Below, piece after piece: positions 1 to 7,870 of a stretch of 7,870 nt of DNA. A program made the position numbers and the translations under genes. The notes beneath the pieces are model-generated. The model worked only from the letters and a program-made list of their open reading frames with translations. It was not told the origin of the DNA and searched no databases. How positions within the stretch are numbered: the first letter of the stretch is position 1; every line of letters begins with the position of its first letter. Source of the stretch: a virus (taxonomy: Duplodnaviria; Heunggongvirae; Uroviricota; Caudoviricetes). Location of the stretch: the IMG/VR virus record IMGVR_UViG_2534681697_000021; one strand, 5' to 3'.

Positions 1-108
1 TGCAGCTACACAGACACTCCCACCAGCCACGAAGTACCCAAGTTCACCAGAGCAGAACGCAAAGGCATTGACGAAGTAATTCGGGCAATTACACCGAGGG
101 AACGTTAT

Positions 109-495
109 ATGCCAACCAGAAAGAGCACAAAGAACAGCATCAAAAATTATTTGAATAACTTCGACAGCTACGAGCAACTACCAAGCAAGCTTGATGATAT
201 TTTTATTGGGTTCTGTAGAAGTGAATGTCACCCAAAATACGACAGGAAATTGTTTTATCTTCTAAAGAATCTTGACGAAATTAACACATCCAGCGTGACA
301 AATTATCTTCAAAGACAATCAACCAGACTTAGCTACGAATTACCAAGCGATAAATATTGTGCATTGCTTGCTGTAATGTGTGCAAAGCTAATTGGTATTG
401 TTGAACATCATATTGCCGTTGGGAATATTGAGCCAATGGAAAACGAGCAACCAGATTTCGAGTTTGACCCGTATTTAGTTACAGAGGAATTTTAA
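109..495 (+). CDS. hypothetical protein (128 aa from ATG109), possibly 5'-partial
   Basis: ORF with SD-like GAGGG about 8 nt upstream of ATG109. The same frame is open from window position 1 (36 sense codons, no stop), so the true start may lie upstream of the window. Acidic C-terminal tail (EQPDFEFDPYLVTEEF). No family recognised. Confidence 0.5.
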   Translation: MPTRKSTKNSIKNYLNNFDSYEQLPSKLDDIFIGFCRSECHPKYDRKLFYLLKNLDEINTSSVTNYLQRQSTRLSYELPSDKYCALLAVMCAKLIGIVEHHIAVGNIEPMENEQPDFEFDPYLVTEEF

Positions 496-708
496 ATGGA
501 AAATAAACACACATTAACCCGTATTTCAGAGGAAGCTTTTGGCGAGCTTGCCAGAATTAAACGAGCAACTAACTTACCTCACCAAACTGTTATGCATCTT
601 GCAATTGCTAAAGAAGTCACTGAGTCGGATTTACTTAAATATCCAGTCTCTAAAGGTCGTAAACACATCCGAATTACTCAGGACGCTTTAGATACTTTGA
701 AGGGATAA
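496..708 (+). CDS. hypothetical small protein (70 aa)
   Basis: ATG496 directly abuts the stop of the upstream ORF (TAA|ATG); SD AGAGGA about 8 nt upstream. Small, Lys/Arg-rich. No family recognised; a nucleic-acid-binding role is only a guess. Confidence 0.5.
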   Translation: MENKHTLTRISEEAFGELARIKRATNLPHQTVMHLAIAKEVTESDLLKYPVSKGRKHIRITQDALDTLKG

Positions 709-774
709 CGGCTTTAAAATTGATATTGCCCGTCTATTGAGTCTTAAAATTCACAAGTTGGCGATGGAGGTTTA

Positions 775-990
775 ATGCTATGCGTTACCTTTGAATACCA
801 CACGGATAAAATGATTCGCTACATCTCCGACCTCCTGATTAAAGGAAACGGATTCGGTGACATCCATAACTCAAAAGATATTTTCATTAAAGCCATTGGC
901 CCAAATGAAGCGCTGAAAACAGCAGTTAAACCGGAATGGTTTGAGCGTCACAAGATTGAATTAGGTTATTGGGGTGAGGAGGTTTTATGA
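775..990 (+). CDS. hypothetical protein (71 aa)
   Basis: SD GGAGG 5 nt upstream of ATG775; stop overlaps the start of the next ORF (ATGA at 987-990). No family recognised. Confidence 0.5.
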   Translation: MLCVTFEYHTDKMIRYISDLLIKGNGFGDIHNSKDIFIKAIGPNEALKTAVKPEWFERHKIELGYWGEEVL

Positions 991-1274
991 AACCTTGGCA
1001 TGAAGATGTTAGACGATATTTTACAGAACACCTTATCTATGATGAATCCAGTGATTCCCTGTGCTGGTCTGATGGAGAGTCAGTCACGATAAATACCGAC
1101 GACTACGGCAACAAAACATTTAATATAGGCCGATACACTTTCTACGTGAAATATGTTGTCTGGTTCCTTTATCATGGCTATCAATCCAATAAGCAAATTA
1201 TCCATCGAAATGGTAACAGAGCCGATACCAGACCAAAAAATCTTATGCAAGTCCGAGACTTTAAGAGAAATTAG
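987..1274 (+). CDS. HNH endonuclease-like protein (95 aa, minimal or truncated HNH_3-type)
   Basis: Strong SD GAGGAGG 5-6 nt upstream. Translation contains ...YTFYVKYVVWFLYHGYQSNKQIIHRNGNRADTRPKNL..., matching the His-x-(D/N)-G-N ... N-L core of phage HNH endonucleases. The protein ends about 12 residues after the motif, so it is unusually short. Confidence 0.55.
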   Translation: MKPWHEDVRRYFTEHLIYDESSDSLCWSDGESVTINTDDYGNKTFNIGRYTFYVKYVVWFLYHGYQSNKQIIHRNGNRADTRPKNLMQVRDFKRN

Positions 1275-1432
1275 AAAAACAGCTTCTCAGTCGCTCTCAA
1301 TCGCATTCTAACGCAAAAAAAACTATCTTATTTTAGGGTGGGTAATACCACTGTACAGGCTACCCCTGAAAAAGACTGTTTAGCTCGTTACAGAGCGATT
1401 GAAGAGGTCTGGTAAAAAGGAGGTTTTAGGAA

Positions 1433-1741
1433 ATGAACAATTACCCAATGCAAATTATGGTTGACCAAGAAACTATGAATTGGTTGATTGACCTGAACAG
1501 GTCAGGATTTAACGTGCATTTCATGAATTGCTTTGAAGCTTCAAGTTATATCGACAAGCGCACCATCAACGAAATTAAACTTGACGACTATGTTCACAAG
1601 CTGGAAGTGACAGACCCACACAACAAGCGCTTTATCATTGAAGAGTGCAATCGACTTGATTTAAGTCCTGAGCAATTATTGAAGCTGAATGTATTCTTGA
1701 CCTATCAGAATGAATTAAACCCTTACAGTGAGGTGATGTAA
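1433..1741 (+). CDS. hypothetical protein (102 aa)
   Basis: Strong SD AAGGAGG about 9 nt upstream of ATG1433. No family recognised. Confidence 0.5.
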   Translation: MNNYPMQIMVDQETMNWLIDLNRSGFNVHFMNCFEASSYIDKRTINEIKLDDYVHKLEVTDPHNKRFIIEECNRLDLSPEQLLKLNVFLTYQNELNPYSEVM

Positions 1742-1818
1742 TGACACTCGTTATTCTCTGGACGGCTTTAGGTATATTGTGTGGTTGCTTGGTAGGCAAC
1801 ACAGTAAATAAGAATTGA
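1741..1818 (+). CDS. putative small hydrophobic peptide (25 aa, MTLVILWTALGILCGCLVGNTVNKN)
   Basis: ATG overlaps the stop of the upstream ORF (TAATG at 1739-1743), suggesting translational coupling. One predicted transmembrane-like segment. Too short to be in the ORF track; speculative. Confidence 0.2.
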   Translation: MTLVILWTALGILCGCLVGNTVNKN

Positions 1819-2073
1819 TGTTATCAATCTGTTAAAGGCTGTTGACAAATAACCTTAGACATGAGATGATGGTAATAGGGGAGAGCAACTCTTCCTGAAT
1901 TAAACTATTAATCATCTCTACATCGATGATAACTATATTCTGAGTTGGTGAGGTATGTTCTATACCGAATATTCTGAAAGGTGCAATGCTTTTCGCCATG
2001 GCCTATTTAGCCCACACTAGATAGGCTATCTCAAAAAGTACTCTTGTTCATTCGTTTGAATCCTTTACAGATT

Positions 2074-2101
2074 GCCCTAATCATGAGTTAGGGCGTTTTT
2101 T
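2074..2101 (+). terminator. rho-independent terminator-like hairpin
   Basis: 7-bp stem GCCCTAA (2074-2080) / TTAGGGC (2088-2094), 7-nt loop, followed by GTTTTTT (2095-2101). Confidence 0.5.
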
Positions 2102-2163
2102 AAGAGTTTTTAAAGAAATTTCTTCACCAGCCCTTTATAGCGTTTTAGTTATCTAGGGCTTTT

Positions 2164-2249
2164 TCAGCTTTTAAAAAGCACACTTGGCAAACCGCCTTTT
2201 AAGTCTCTTCTAAGTTCGTAGGCTGTCAGGTGTGCTTTTTAAAAACTGA
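2164..2249. repeat. 86-bp inverted-repeat structure: 20-bp arms (1 mismatch) around a 46-bp spacer
   Basis: Left arm TCAGCTTTTAAAAAGCACAC (2164-2183); right arm GTGTGCTTTTTAAAAACTGA (2230-2249) is its reverse complement apart from one base. Lies about 30 bp upstream of the ORF at 2281. Confidence 0.8.
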
Positions 2250-2280
2250 AACATAAATTCTCTTAGAAGAGGAAAAAATA

Positions 2281-2508
2281 ATGTCTATCCGTAATGAAAA
2301 TGAAATGCTTATCGAAAACCGACCAAGTGCACTTGATATTCACGAATTAAGTTTGCGTGAATCTTTTGATAGAGCTTGGCGGGAATCACACGAAGTAAAT
2401 AAAGGTCCATATATTCCACCAGAACCACTCGAGATTCCAAGAGTTGAAATTGATTTTTCTATGAACGAACGGTGTGAACTTGATTTGAAGTTGAAGCTAC
2501 AACGCTGA
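2281..2508 (+). CDS. hypothetical protein (75 aa), possibly the 5' part of a disrupted longer gene
   Basis: SD AGAGGA about 9 nt upstream of ATG2281. The same frame stays open after the TGA at 2506-2508 for another 57 codons. Confidence 0.45.
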   Translation: MSIRNENEMLIENRPSALDIHELSLRESFDRAWRESHEVNKGPYIPPEPLEIPRVEIDFSMNERCELDLKLKLQR

Positions 2509-2541
2509 TATTTCCAAGCTATTAAAGACTCTCAAGAAGCA

Positions 2542-2906
2542 ATGAGAAGTGTTTACGAGAAAATTCAGTCCAAGCTTGAAGACGAAATTGACGAAATGGC
2601 TATTTTGATGGAGCTTCAAACCAATCCTTATGCTTATTTCTCTCGACTAGACCGTGACGGTTGGGGGATGACCCTGTAGAGATTGGTAAAGTGATTGCAG
2701 ATTTACCAGAAGGTCAAAGAGTTGTTCGTACAGAAAGAGCTGTCAGAGCACCACATCGACTGTCTCTAATTGTTGCTGATAAATCACAAGCTGAGCTGAT
2801 TAGTGACCATCAAGCGCTGGCTAAGGAGTACCGTCAAGAATTGGCACAGATTATCAGCTTCAATGATTTTCTGAGTGTTCCACGAGAATTTAGCAAGGCT
2901 GTTTGA
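2542..2906 (+). pseudogene. frameshifted hypothetical gene (frame 1 2542-2679, frame 0 2661-2906, joined at G5 run 2663-2667)
   Basis: Two overlapping ORFs in adjacent frames meet at the homopolymer GGGGG. The downstream ORF has only a TTG start and no SD, which argues against an independent gene. Removing one G fuses them into about 121 aa. Confidence 0.35.
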
Positions 2907-2929
2907 TTATGCAATATGTGAGGTGATTA

Positions 2930-3142
2930 ATGTTTGAAGAACGTTTAGAGACTATTCGGTCTGTTTGCGAAAGACTCCAGCTACAACCAAATAGACAAAA
3001 GCTACGAATTAAGAATAACCGTCATTACATCACCTCACACAAACCAAAAACACGCAAGATTCCAAAGTGGTGTATTGACCGTATTCCTTCTGATGCTCAA
3101 ATCATAGGTGAAACGGAATTACATTACCTTGTCAGACATTAA
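2930..3142 (+). CDS. hypothetical basic protein (70 aa)
   Basis: SD GAGGTGA 5 nt upstream of ATG2930; followed by a terminator hairpin. No family recognised. Confidence 0.5.
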   Translation: MFEERLETIRSVCERLQLQPNRQKLRIKNNRHYITSHKPKTRKIPKWCIDRIPSDAQIIGETELHYLVRH

Positions 3143-3164
3143 AAAGGATTGGTTGGGTAAATAC

Positions 3165-3204
3165 GGGGAGAGATTAACCTTAATTGGTTGACTCTCCCCT
3201 TTTT
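3165..3204 (+). terminator. rho-independent terminator
   Basis: 8-bp stem GGGGAGAG (3165-3172) / CTCTCCCC (3192-3199) with a 4-bp inner stem, followed by TTTTT (3200-3204). Sits just after the ORF ending at 3142. Confidence 0.6.
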
Positions 3205-3282
3205 CGTATATAAACACTTAAAGAGGTGAAAAATATGAATGAGCAAATTCACAGTTGATTCGTTTATCGTTGAGCTAGGCTT

Positions 3283-3490
3283 TGAAGTGGCACACTGAAT
3301 TTGGCCACCTGAACAGAGGTGATATGCTCACCTCAGAACAACACAGGTGCTCCAATGAAAAAAAGAAATTTTAGCGCAGAGTTTAAACGCGAATCCGCTC
3401 AACTGGTTGTTGACCAGAAATACACGGTGGCAGATGCCGCCAAAGCTATGGATGTTGGCCTTTCCACAATGACAAGATGGGTCAAACAAC
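3283..3490 (+). mobile_element. IS911 remnant, left end (IRL plus 5' part of orfA), interrupted by IS600
   Basis: Starts with TGAAGTGGCACACTGAATTTGGCCACC, recalled as an IS911-type terminus, followed by the orfA start. Left boundary is approximate. Confidence 0.55.
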
Positions 3491-3498
3491 TGAGGTAG
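3355..3498 (+). pseudogene. IS911 orfA (InsN-like) N-terminal fragment, 47 codons
   Basis: Translation [47 protein letters not shown] matches the IS911 OrfA N-terminus from memory. The frame is closed by a TAG that belongs to the IS600 left terminus. Confidence 0.75.
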
Positions 3499-3554
3499 CC
3501 TGAGTTTAACGGACACTCCTTCCTGAAATAGAATGGCATCAGAAGGAGCTAATA

Positions 3555-3857
3555 ATGAGCAGAAAAACCCAACGTTACTCTAAAGAGTTCAAAGCCGAAG
3601 CTGTCAGAACGGTTCTTGAAAATCAACTTTCGATCAGTGAAGGCGCTTCCCGATTATCCCTTCCTGAAGGCACTTTAGGACAATGGGTTACCGCCGCCAG
3701 AAAAGGGCTCGGTACTCCTGGTTCCCGCACGGTGGCTGAACTGGAATCTGAAATTCTGCAACTGCGTAAGGCGTTAAATGAAGCTCGCCTTGAGCGAGAT
3801 ATATTAAAAAAAGCAACAGCGTATTTTGCACAGGAGTCGCTGAAAAATACGCGTTAA
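3555..3857 (+). CDS. IS600 transposase OrfA (100 aa)
   Basis: SD AAGGAG about 8 nt upstream. Translation MSRKTQRYSKEFKAEAVRTVLENQ... with a leucine-zipper-like C-terminus, typical of IS3-family OrfA. Confidence 0.9.
   Translation: MSRKTQRYSKEFKAEAVRTVLENQLSISEGASRLSLPEGTLGQWVTAARKGLGTPGSRTVAELESEILQLRKALNEARLERDILKKATAYFAQESLKNTR
3806..3813 (+). promoter_or_regulatory. programmed -1 ribosomal frameshift site (A7G slippery run) of IS600 orfAB
   Basis: A AAA AAA G at 3806-3813 inside orfA. A -1 slip here enters the orfB frame and reads ...[33 protein letters not shown]... Confidence 0.6.
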
Positions 3858-3892
3858 TCGAACAATGGCGACAACAATTTCCCATTGAAGCG

Positions 3893-4711
3893 ATGTGTCA
3901 GGTATTTGGTGTATCCAGGAGCGGTTATTACAACTGGGTACAGCATGAACCCTCAGACAGAAAACAAAGTGATGAGCGGCTAAAACTGGAGATTAAGGTG
4001 GCACATATCCGCACTCGCGAAACATATGGAACCCGGCGGCTCCAGACGGAGCTGGCAGAGAATGGCATCATCGTTGGTCGTGACCGACTGGCACGTCTTC
4101 GTAAGGAGCTAAGGCTACGCTGTAAGCAGAAACGCAAGTTCAGAGCGACTACGAACCCGAACCACAATCTGCCAGTTGCGCCAAATCTGCTGAACCAGAC
4201 GTTCGCTCCTACAGCACCAAATCAGGTCTGGGTGGCGGACCTGACGTATGTTGCCACACAGGAGGGATGGTTGTACCTCGCTGGCATCAAAGATGTTTAT
4301 ACGTGCGAAATTGTCGGCTACGCCATGGGAGAGCGCATGACAAAAGAGCTGACAGGTAAAGCCCTGTTTATGGCGCTCAGGAGCCAGCGCCCACCTGCCG
4401 GGCTAATCCACCACTCTGATCGAGGTTCACAGTACTGCGCATACGATTACCGGGTCATACAGGAGCAGTTTGGTCTGAAAACATCAATGTCGCGTAAAGG
4501 TAACTGTTACGACAACGCTCCGATGGAAAGCTTCTGGGGAACGCTGAAAAATGAGAGCCTGAGCCACTATCGTTTTAATAACCGGGATGAAGCCATCTCA
4601 GTAATACGGGAATACATTGAGATTTTCTACAATCGTCAGCGTCGTCACTCTCGTCTGGGGAATATCTCCCCGGCAGCCTTCAGGGAAAAATATCATCAGA
4701 TGGCTGCTTAA
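3893..4711 (+). CDS. IS600 transposase OrfB (DDE catalytic domain), expressed as OrfAB fusion by -1 frameshift
   Basis: Coordinates are from the first ATG, but the frame is open from about 3812. It lies in the -1 frame relative to orfA. DDE motif context present: VWVADLTYV ... HHSDRGSQY ... [14 protein letters not shown]. Confidence 0.9.
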
Positions 4712-4754
4712 AAAAAGAACAAATGGTAGTGTCCGCTATTGCCAGTACACCTCA

Positions 4755-4999
4755 TGGAAAAACCGTCCTGAAAAACCAGACGGCAGACGGGCTGTATTAC
4801 GCAGTCAGGTACTTGAGCTACATGGCATCAGCCATGGTTCGGCCGGAGCAAGAAGCATCGCCACAATGGCAACCCGGAGAGGCTACCAGATGGGACGCTG
4901 GCTTGCTGGCAGGCTCATGAAAGAGCTGGGGCTGGTCAGCTGTCAGCAGCCGACTCACCGGTATAAACGTGGTGGTCATGAACATGTTGCTATCCCTAA
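4755..4999 (+). mobile_element. IS911 internal fragment (orfB portion), same orientation as the left IS911 remnant
   Basis: Immediately after the IS600 right end the sequence encodes [81 protein letters not shown], recalled as IS911 OrfB. The end near 4999 is approximate and marks where the translation stops resembling IS911. Confidence 0.55.
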
Positions 5000-5888
5000 A
5001 GGATTTGTTGTCGGTGACGGCAACTACCAGTATGCAGTTTCCCGCGATACGGTGGTGCCGGAAAGCGGGCAGACTGAGCCAGTCTACTGTGTGGCCACAA
5101 CGTCAGGCTCATGGGCTGTACCGGAAGGAACCGTAACGCAGGTCATTACATCGGTACCCAAAGATCAGCCTGTAAAATGCACGAACCTTACCGCAGGGAT
5201 GCCAGGTCAGGAGGCGCAAACGTGGGCATCTTACCGCGCCGAAGTCATGGAGTCCGGCATGTTTGGTGTGCAGGGAACACCGGATTGCTTTAAAGCGATG
5301 CTCAAATCAGTAAGCGGTGTGCGAGAAAACCTGATTTCTTTCCGGCAGTCGTCGCTGGGGAAATGGGTTGCGGTTGTTGGTGGCGGTGATCCGTATGATG
5401 TGGCTTATGCTATTTACAAATCTGTACCGGATATTTCGAAACTGATCAACGATGTTAGCAATCCATCTGGTGCGGCAGTGGAAAAACGCACGGTTTCAAT
5501 AACCGTTTCGCCAGATGTTTATCAGGTGCCGTTCGTTATCCCGTCATCACAAAACGTCATGGTGCTAATCACCTGGAACACTGTATCTGATGATTATGTT
5601 GATCCGGCGGGTATTGCTATGGCTGTGCAGCAAAACGTTGCTGATTACATCAATTCTATTGAAGTCGGACACCCGATAAATCTGCTGCGAATCCAGGATA
5701 TTTTTACCAGTTCCGTCAGATTGTTGGTTGATGCGACGTTGATCTCAACAATCAGTGTGAGCATTGGCATTAATGGCCATATTGTTCCTCCGGCAAAAGA
5801 CACAAGCCTGGTTTATGGCGATACCTATTCCTATTTTTCGACGGTGGCATCACAGGTTCAAGTTAACAAGTATGCAATATCTGACTGA
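5000..5888 (+). pseudogene. phage baseplate assembly protein (P2 gpJ / Mu gp47-like), 5'-truncated fragment
   Basis: About 296 codons in frame downstream of the IS911 fragment, with no own start or SD. Assigned by position (immediately upstream of the tail-fibre genes, with a 17-nt overlap onto the next gene) and a loose resemblance to baseplate-J proteins. Family assignment is tentative. Confidence 0.45.
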
Positions 5889-6498
5889 AAAAATTCTCCC
5901 TGCTTATCCGTTTGTGCAGTACAGAGATGATCCGAATGTTGTTGCGTTCTTTGATGCATACAATGAAATTGCTCAGGAATACCTCGATTCACTCAACAAT
6001 CTGGCATTGCCATGCTGGACATCGGAATCAATAACCGGGCAATTGCTGGACTGGATTGCTCTCGGGATTTATGGCGTTGAAAGGCCTTTACTACAGGTTT
6101 CCGAGGAGGCTATTGCACGCGGCGCATACGATACCATTGAATACAATACAATCCCTTATGCGGCAATGCGGAATTATGTTCCGGGGCAGGCATCGTATGT
6201 TCCGGATGATTATTTCAAGCGAATATTAACTTGGAATTTTTATAAGGCTGACGGTTCGCATTTCTGCATTGACTGGTTAAAGCGCCGTGTGGCACGGTTC
6301 ATTCATGGGAAAAACGGAATAGACCCGCCGTTGCAGCACACTTTTGATGTGAGCGTGACTGTATCGGACAGTGTTTTTTCTATTCAGATACCAGAATATG
6401 GTGATGGTATAGGCTATTTTCTGAAAGATGCCATTGACCAGAAATATGTAAAACTCCCTTTTATTTATTCCTATGCAACAACGGTGATTCAAAAATGA
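5872..6498 (+). CDS. phage tail/baseplate protein at the Mu gp48 / P2 gpI position (208 aa)
   Basis: ATG5872 ([13 protein letters not shown]...) overlaps the upstream gene by 17 nt, and its stop overlaps the next start (ATGA at 6495-6498). The gene order baseplate J - this gene - tail fibre matches Mu-like and P2-like tail modules. The longer ORF-track start at 5764 is rejected. Confidence 0.55.
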
Positions 6499-7649
6499 TT
6501 CTTGGATTCGGAAATAACGTTGTTTCAGCACTGGCTGGTGATATTACGACGATTCAGACTGATATTCCGGTGATGCCGGGCACGGGAGCTAAATTTGCAA
6601 AATTGCTTTCTGCCGATTTTGAAAATAAATCGAACGGGCAACGCGTCTATGCAAAAATTACGCTTACCGATAATAAAGAGTCTGCATTTGAGATTTGTCA
6701 CCTGGTATCGGTAAGCGGTGATGTGCTGAAAGTCATTCGTGGGCAGGAAGGAACAACCGCGAAAGGTTGGTCCCTTAATGACGTTGTGGCTAACTTTGCC
6801 ACGCGTGGATCGGAAAACTATTTCGTACAGATAGCGCAGCTTCAGAGCGGTCATTATATTGCGGGTGTTGCTGGTGGCACTGCAAACACACTGACGCTGG
6901 AACTTCCCTCGACGTTTTTTGTTAATGAGGGTACAGATTGGACGCTACGAACCCCGATTATCGTTTTCCCCGTTCAGAACAATACCAACGCGGCGACACT
7001 TCAACTAACACTAGGCGGAAAGGTTCTTGGTACGCTCCCACTTTATAAGGGGAACAAGTCCGAGCTGGTGGCGAATGATATCATTAAGGGTATTCCTTTT
7101 ATTTGCCTTCTTGATAGCGAGAAAAGCTATTTCAGCGTGATAAACCCCGGCAATATCTATTCAGATTTTGATCTGCGATATGTAAAAAAATCTGGTGATT
7201 TGATGACCGGGGAGCTGAAAATCCGTGGTGTTAATGCGCTGAGGATTTTCAACGAAGCATTTGGTCTGATTTTTCGTCGTTCGGAAGAGTGCCTGCACCT
7301 TATCCCTACCAGTGAAGGTCAGGGCGAGAATGGCGATATTGGCCCCCTGCGCCCGTTCACCATTAATTTGCGGACGGGTGAAATATCCATGTCGCATAAA
7401 GTGTCTGTTGGCGGTGGTTCGCAGGTCAATGGTGCGCTGGGTATCGGCGTTCAGAACGCCCTGGGCGGAAACTCAATTGCTTTCGGGGATAACGATACAG
7501 GTATAAAACAAAACGGCGACGGCATTCTGGATGTTTATGCGAATGGACAGCATGTATTTCGTTTCCAGAATGGTGTGGCGATAGCGTTAAAAAATATTCA
7601 GGCCGGAAATGCTAAAAAATTCACGTTATCTGAGGTGTACTGGCAATAG
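6495..7649 (+). CDS. phage tail fibre protein, C-terminally truncated by IS600 insertion (384 aa as read)
   Basis: Translationally coupled start (ATGA). Tail-fibre-like Gly/Asn/Thr-rich sequence with ...KKSGDLMTGELKI.... The last 5 codons and the stop (EVYWQ*) are read from the IS600 terminus starting at 7631, so the native C-terminus is missing. Confidence 0.6.
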   Translation: MILGFGNNVVSALAGDITTIQTDIPVMPGTGAKFAKLLSADFENKSNGQRVYAKITLTDNKESAFEICHLVSVSGDVLKVIRGQEGTTAKGWSLNDVVANFATRGSENYFVQIAQLQSGHYIAGVAGGTANTLTLELPSTFFVNEGTDWTLRTPIIVFPVQNNTNAATLQLTLGGKVLGTLPLYKGNKSELVANDIIKGIPFICLLDSEKSYFSVINPGNIYSDFDLRYVKKSGDLMTGELKIRGVNALRIFNEAFGLIFRRSEECLHLIPTSEGQGENGDIGPLRPFTINLRTGEISMSHKVSVGGGSQVNGALGIGVQNALGGNSIAFGDNDTGIKQNGDGILDVYANGQHVFRFQNGVAIALKNIQAGNAKKFTLSEVYWQ

Positions 7650-7870
7650 CGGACACTACCATTTGTTCTTTTTTTAAGCAGCCATCTGATGATATTTTTC
7701 CCTGAAGGCTGCCGGGGAGATATTCCCCAGACGAGAGTGACGACGCTGACGATTGTAGAAAATCTCAATGTATTCCCGTATTACTGAGATGGCTTCATCC
7801 CGGTTATTAAAACGATAGTGGCTCAGGCTCTCATTTTTCAGCGTTCCCCAGAAGCTTTCCATCGGAGCGT
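7631..7870 (-). mobile_element. IS600, second copy in inverted orientation, partial (runs off the window)
   Basis: The reverse complement of 7631-7870 matches the right 240 bp of the first copy (4515-4754) by eye, including the OrfB C-terminus and terminal repeat. Confidence 0.85.
7674..7870 (-). CDS. IS600 transposase OrfB, 3' portion (partial at window edge)
   Basis: Minus-strand translation ...[62 protein letters not shown] is identical to the C-terminus of the OrfB at 3893-4711. The gene continues beyond position 7870. Confidence 0.85.
   Translation of the reverse strand, partial: APMESFWGTLKNESLSHYRFNNRDEAISVIREYIEIFYNRQRRHSRLGNISPAAFREKYHQMAA

Follow-up and report, generated by a model that had tools for sequence, protein, structure and literature searches.

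The segment at positions 2281–2906 of the stretch of DNA analysed here (7,870 nt at full length, hereafter the window) is very probably a triply mutated pseudogene, the remains of an island gene for a 234-aa protein on a Shigella boydii-type chromosome, and it would have decayed after the loss of its operon partners. The feature itself can be described as follows.

2281..2906, + strand: pseudogene, remnant of a 705-nt/234-aa island gene, as read from a colinear 97–98% alignment to intact CDSs and from the protein alignment

Reading frames and lesions of the remnant

Frame 1 of the segment is open from an ATG at 2281 to a TAG at 2677–2679, with a TGA at 2506–2508 as its sole internal stop, and a −1 shift at the G5 run at 2663–2667 links this frame to a TTG-start ORF at 2661–2906. 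On these points the sequence and its translation agree with the initial annotation, which also proposed that one broken ancestral gene accounts for all three pieces, now ORFs of 75, 45 and 81 codons in the ORF list. The homologues, which present a single intact ORF at 95–98% nucleotide identity, confirm this proposal. A three-way nucleotide alignment, checked by script, gives a count of exactly three lesions relative to the intact CDS.

2506..2508, + strand: lesion 1, a C→T transition changing CGA (Arg76) to TGA, from the alignment
2663..2668, + strand: lesion 2, a 1-nt deletion, the T after the G5 run being missing between 2667 and 2668, from the alignment
2794..2797, + strand: lesion 3, the junction of a 78-nt (26-codon) in-frame deletion with a 4-nt AGCT microhomology, from the alignment

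At the position of the first lesion, the 20 loci outside the window lineage, whether intact or otherwise truncated, all have CGA or AAA as codon 76, and TGA is restricted to the window lineage among the 25 loci compared. The alignment to intact homologues places Arg or Lys at the TGA position, within one ORF and with no frameshift; neither three separate genes nor the stop is found in these homologues.

The second lesion falls at codon 130, and the shifted frame terminates four codons on, at the TAG at 2677–2679. Intact copies read GGGGGTATGAC where the window reads GGGGGATGAC; GACGGTTGGGGGTATGACC has an exact match in 12 intact or S. sonnei-type loci, the T being aligned in 20/20 such loci, and GACGGTTGGGGGATGACC is the form present in the window and in loci L003–L006. 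A frameshift of the G5 run had been proposed at this point. The frame does change there, but not through a change in homopolymer length, as the base lost is the adjacent T and the tract is G5 in 25/25 loci, intact or broken. This comparison bears directly on the idea, raised together with the frameshift, that the gene could be a contingency gene toggled by slipped-strand changes of G-run length. The G5 tract is indeed located exactly where the frame changes, and in this respect the locus resembles the contingency loci of Neisseria, Haemophilus and Campylobacter, with their poly-G tract at the frame-change point. In contrast to those loci, the tract here is invariant and the flanking T is mutated, and two further disabling lesions are present: the nonsense codon 53 codons upstream and the 78-nt deletion would defeat any switch. 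Five Gs are also shorter than typical contingency tracts. Therefore, with a constant G5 in the 25 loci and an adjacent T that causes the shift, phase variation fails as an explanation and appears extremely improbable.

The third lesion removes the residues LEEIAKEKLMKARENEINLLKSRLAK, located in the C-terminal helix, and is a microhomology-mediated deletion. The 78-nt deletion is absent from 112/112 E. coli genomes holding the central region, and an exact scan for the deletion junction retrieved no match in the species-representative genomes, among which Shigella is probably not separately represented. This 26-codon deletion was overlooked in the initial annotation and, as a consequence, the ancestor was underestimated at about 208 aa instead of the 234 aa of the intact homologues, none of which has a 208-aa form. 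No allele with one or two of the three lesions was found among the 25 loci.

Intact homologues and the distribution of the lesions

In a nucleotide search, positions 2200–2950 of the window matched 265 complete E. coli chromosomes, of which 93 cover the whole query at 95–98% identity (E = 0), in two pieces that span about 831 nt against the 751 nt of the query. Wherever the annotation was inspected, the corresponding locus carries a single 705-nt "hypothetical protein" CDS of 234 aa; WP_001461099.1 and P0001 are such intact examples. A search of 5.8 billion protein clusters yielded 40 proteins from E. coli, Shigella sonnei and Citrobacter, and an exhaustive profile search of 1.84 billion representatives yielded 13 clusters, the whole family amounting to about 13 clusters at 50% identity. 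Escherichia albertii is the sole carrier among 185,579 species-representative genomes. The full-length members measure 233–235 aa, even at 64% identity. A 4,004-aa giant adhesin-like protein (P0046) was rejected as a relative: it consists of about 25 near-identical repeats of around 100 aa, over which summed weak matches gave E = 5e-22.

Among four intact copies, the six pairwise comparisons give dN/dS values of 0.15–0.25, with dS up to 0.48. Therefore, the long frame is protein-coding and constrained, and the intact gene is under purifying selection. The TGA, the T loss and the 78-nt deletion are found only in the window and in loci L003–L006, and in 0/20 of the other loci; judging from this distribution, the lesions are derived and lineage-specific.

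The exact 75-aa and 81-aa products of the remnant are encoded in the complete genome CP026875.1 (locus L003), which corresponds to Shigella boydii NCTC 9734 (Hawkey et al., 2020, supplementary file 20, PMC7373316). The same products are present in the Logan assemblies of SRR1811688 (a contig found in six samples), SRR4787083 and DRR015921. All these loci hold the three diagnostic junction strings CTACAACGCTGATATTTCC, GGTTGGGGGATGACCCTG and CACAAGCTGAGCTGATTAGTGACC, and the same lesions are thus found in five independent sequences from different projects, the window being counted. The window is 99.7% identical to CP026875 over positions 514–7870, but the identity falls to 67% over its first ~360 nt, which shows that the window comes from a separate genome. 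Two distinct genomes therefore share the lesions, which arose before at least two strains separated. As for the early region itself, positions 1–513 of the window are about 67% identical to positions 5720–6232 of L003 and 91% identical to E. coli TUM9812 (L008), and this mosaic boundary suggests recombination within the early region of the island. Compared with the closest intact copy (L001), the missense differences of the window are located at codons 5, 7, 10 and 14 and are all shared with intact relatives. There is no extra decay beyond the lesions, so the inactivation is evolutionarily recent.

The recurrence of the lesions also decides on the suggestion that an intact gene was misread through sequencing or assembly errors at the homopolymer and at 2506. 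The frameshift does adjoin the G5 run, and some platforms miscall homopolymer length. Nevertheless, the base lost is a T and not a G, the 78-nt deletion and the C→T substitution are not homopolymer errors, and the complete genome of S. boydii NCTC 9734 has the identical three lesions, as do separate assemblies of reads from three or more sequencing projects; the window itself represents a different strain from CP026875. Since all three lesions recur in independent assemblies, sequencing error is ruled out for practical purposes, and its probability is close to nil.

The operon, its leader and the surrounding island

The intact gene is always located within a compact, prophage-like island of ~10–11 kb, whose genes keep a conserved order. 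In E. coli, the island begins with a small resolvase, Dam, an HTH replication-initiator-like protein and small ORFs (sometimes with an HNH endonuclease), continues with an ORF-free leader of 450–580 nt, the 234-aa gene, a 70-aa gene, the tape measure and a Dit-like protein, and ends with a large serine recombinase in convergent orientation. Examples are found at ~1300–11900 of L001, at ~4700–15690 of L024, and in L021 and L008; the counterpart in the window covers 1–3283. At least four chromosomal sites harbour the island (ymdF/wrbA, a split DUF72 gene beside aspS, near yciI, and near msyB), which is devoid of head, terminase, tube or sheath genes. Nucleotide and protein searches retrieved no match in 50,697 phage records or 72,556 plasmids, and no description was found in the literature searched for the island itself or for its protein and run accessions. 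Upstream of the leader, the window contains a small gene at 1433–1741 (5180–5503 in L001), encoding 102 aa against 107–109 aa in the E. coli islands, which is highly diverged in sequence and conserved in position, with no family match.

The tape-measure partner belongs to Pfam TMP_3, TIGR02675 and phrog_4036, and the partner downstream of it is a Dit-like distal-tail protein. In the window, the leader and the region downstream of the pseudogene contain the following features.

2162..2251, + strand: long hairpin in the ORF-free leader (1742–2280), an inverted repeat with 28-nt arms and a 34-nt loop
2930..3142, + strand: 70-aa gene of the same operon, intact, its protein 100% identical to the E. 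coli copy
3239..3283, + strand: tape-measure stump of ~16 codons (MSKFTVDSFIVELGFE...), fused to the IS911 terminal repeat, from the sequence and its translation
3280..4999, + strand: IS911 fragments enclosing a complete IS600 (3491–4754, 1264 nt), annotated as IS3-like IS600 and IS911 family transposases

The homology to the intact island stops at ~3276, and the IS911/IS600 block stands where the tape-measure, Dit-like and serine-recombinase genes were; the window retains neither the Dit-like nor the serine-recombinase gene. With the tape measure cut at ~16 codons and the downstream genes replaced by insertion sequences, the operon is therefore destroyed. The IS600 interrupts the IS911, whose orfA lacks its middle part. 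Beyond ~4999 come the remains of an unrelated Baseplate_J and tail-fibre region and, from ~7630 (7630–7870), another, inversely oriented IS600. The ORF at 4617–5888 is chimeric, combining the end of IS600 with a piece of IS911 orfB and a Baseplate_J gene truncated at its 5' end.

For the 234-aa protein, Pfam, PHROGs, NCBIfam, PADLOC and PDB sequences contain no significant match, and the 70-aa protein belongs to no family in the same resources. A sequence or profile match to any known family of phage tail assembly chaperones was likewise not found. The best match, to DUF7384 (21 bits against a cut-off of 27), was dismissed, as it covers only the coiled-coil-like C-terminus, and other coiled-coil matches were treated in the same way. 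The AlphaFold2 model, built from a 23-sequence alignment and of low confidence (pLDDT 55), predicts two long helices at 61–114 and 170–224. We assign the 234-aa protein to no chaperone family. Our best guess, held with low confidence, is that the ancestral protein could be a tape-measure-associated assembly factor or chaperone, on the grounds that it is encoded directly 5' of the tape-measure gene, is acidic and helical, and always co-occurs with the tape-measure and Dit-like proteins.

This genomic position has to be considered together with a further possibility, namely programmed recoding, in which the TGA would be read as selenocysteine or read through and the pieces joined by a programmed −1 frameshift of the G/GT tail-chaperone kind. 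Programmed −1 frameshifts classically sit upstream of tape-measure genes, as in lambda G/GT. The gene studied here is similarly placed directly 5' of a tape-measure gene (the order 234-aa protein, 70-aa protein, TMP_3 protein being found in all intact islands), its product is likewise acidic, and −1 is the shift needed to join the pieces, for which a P-site tRNA-Gly could re-pair from GGG to GGG. In contrast to lambda G/GT, every intact homologue is one ORF without overlap or shift, unbroken down to 64% identity and with Arg or Lys at the TGA position; there is no sequence match to a chaperone family, and the shift corresponds to a lineage-specific deletion, the lesions being confined to one Shigella lineage. 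Moreover, the zero-frame context T TGG GGG (the next base being A) is not an X XXY YYZ slippery heptamer, the RNA 3' of the shift site folds no better than shuffled sequences (z = −0.2), the RNA 3' of the TGA is weakly structured (z = −1.9), and no SECIS or frameshift element was found in Rfam at E ≤ 1. The recoded gene put forward in the initial annotation therefore fails, because the lesions are lineage-specific and are not accompanied by a SECIS, a slippery heptamer or a stimulatory structure, and we give this alternative almost no weight.

The hairpin of the leader (MFE −42.6 kcal/mol, z = −5.3) is located ~30 nt upstream of the ATG and shows conservation among the E. coli relatives and, in part, in S. 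sonnei. Variation of one stem pair between C-G, U-A and U-G is consistent with a + strand RNA stem. No Rfam family corresponds to this hairpin, and sub-threshold Rfam matches to plant and animal miRNA precursors were discarded as reflecting merely a generic hairpin. It is probably a 5'-UTR element of the operon. A second small hairpin, at 2258–2273, overlaps the likely Shine-Dalgarno GAGG.

The conservation of the promoter-proximal leader, the hairpin, the Shine-Dalgarno region and the start codon, together with the intact adjoining 70-aa gene and the fact that several assemblies call the 75-aa ORF as a gene, would be in line with the pieces being kept as functional small genes, for example as a 75-aa N-terminal protein. 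However, no stand-alone homologue of the 75-aa or 81-aa ORF was found outside this lineage, and on this basis three genuine small genes are rejected; the short family members found elsewhere are contig-end or IS truncations. In addition, the 81-aa ORF has a TTG start only, no ribosome-binding site is obvious for the 45-aa piece, the partners in the operon are destroyed, and the lesions are too recent for selection on the fragments to show. The survival of functional small genes is thus very unlikely. Nevertheless, as the leader and the Shine-Dalgarno region are intact, the 75-aa N-terminal fragment may undergo residual translation.

Loss of the gene in Shigella

Therefore, we favour the decay of a single gene over the alternatives discussed above. 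The gene was once the first cistron of a tail-tip operon encoding the 234-aa, 70-aa, tape-measure and Dit-like proteins. An insertion of IS911/IS600 and a deletion took out the tape-measure gene and everything downstream. On the simplest reading, selection on the gene would have been relaxed once its partners were gone, and point lesions would then have accumulated; this order of events is inferred. The gene acquired three independent mutations (the nonsense substitution, the T loss and the 78-nt deletion), all of them older than the divergence of the window strain from S. boydii NCTC 9734.

In S. sonnei, record HE616528.1 (L010 6001–7730) included, the same gene is intact to approximately codon 198, where it is followed by an IS3-family (IS600-like) element and then by IS1. 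The 70-aa, tape-measure and Dit-like genes are lost from this copy, which is seen on 157 contigs. By its different structure, the S. sonnei inactivation can be recognised as an independent loss of the same gene.

Shigella reference genomes contain at least 199 pseudogenes each, and IS1, IS2, IS4, IS600 and IS911 are expanded in them (Hawkey et al., 2020, PMC7373316). The locus agrees with this genome decay both in its point and indel pseudogene beside IS600/IS911 insertions and IS-mediated deletions, and in the loss of the same gene by different routes according to the lineage, the S. boydii type here and an IS insertion in S. sonnei. Nothing essential differs from the decay described, and this gene and its island are unmentioned in the literature searched. 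The locus is, in this sense, a case of ordinary Shigella genome reduction, a textbook multi-lesion pseudogene.

The three ORFs are consequently best annotated as one pseudogene and not as three hypothetical proteins. That the S. boydii type and S. sonnei inactivated the same island gene in different ways provides a small data point for convergent loss. Any wider interest would lie outside the pseudogene, in an uncharacterised serine-recombinase island that carries only tail-tip genes, and in the conserved leader hairpin. It is conceivable, although we consider it unlikely, that the island is a satellite-like mobile element that supplies a helper phage with tail-tip parts or replaces those it has, the 234-aa protein acting as a tape-measure chaperone. 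If this were true, the window would show an undescribed mobile element being dismantled in Shigella.
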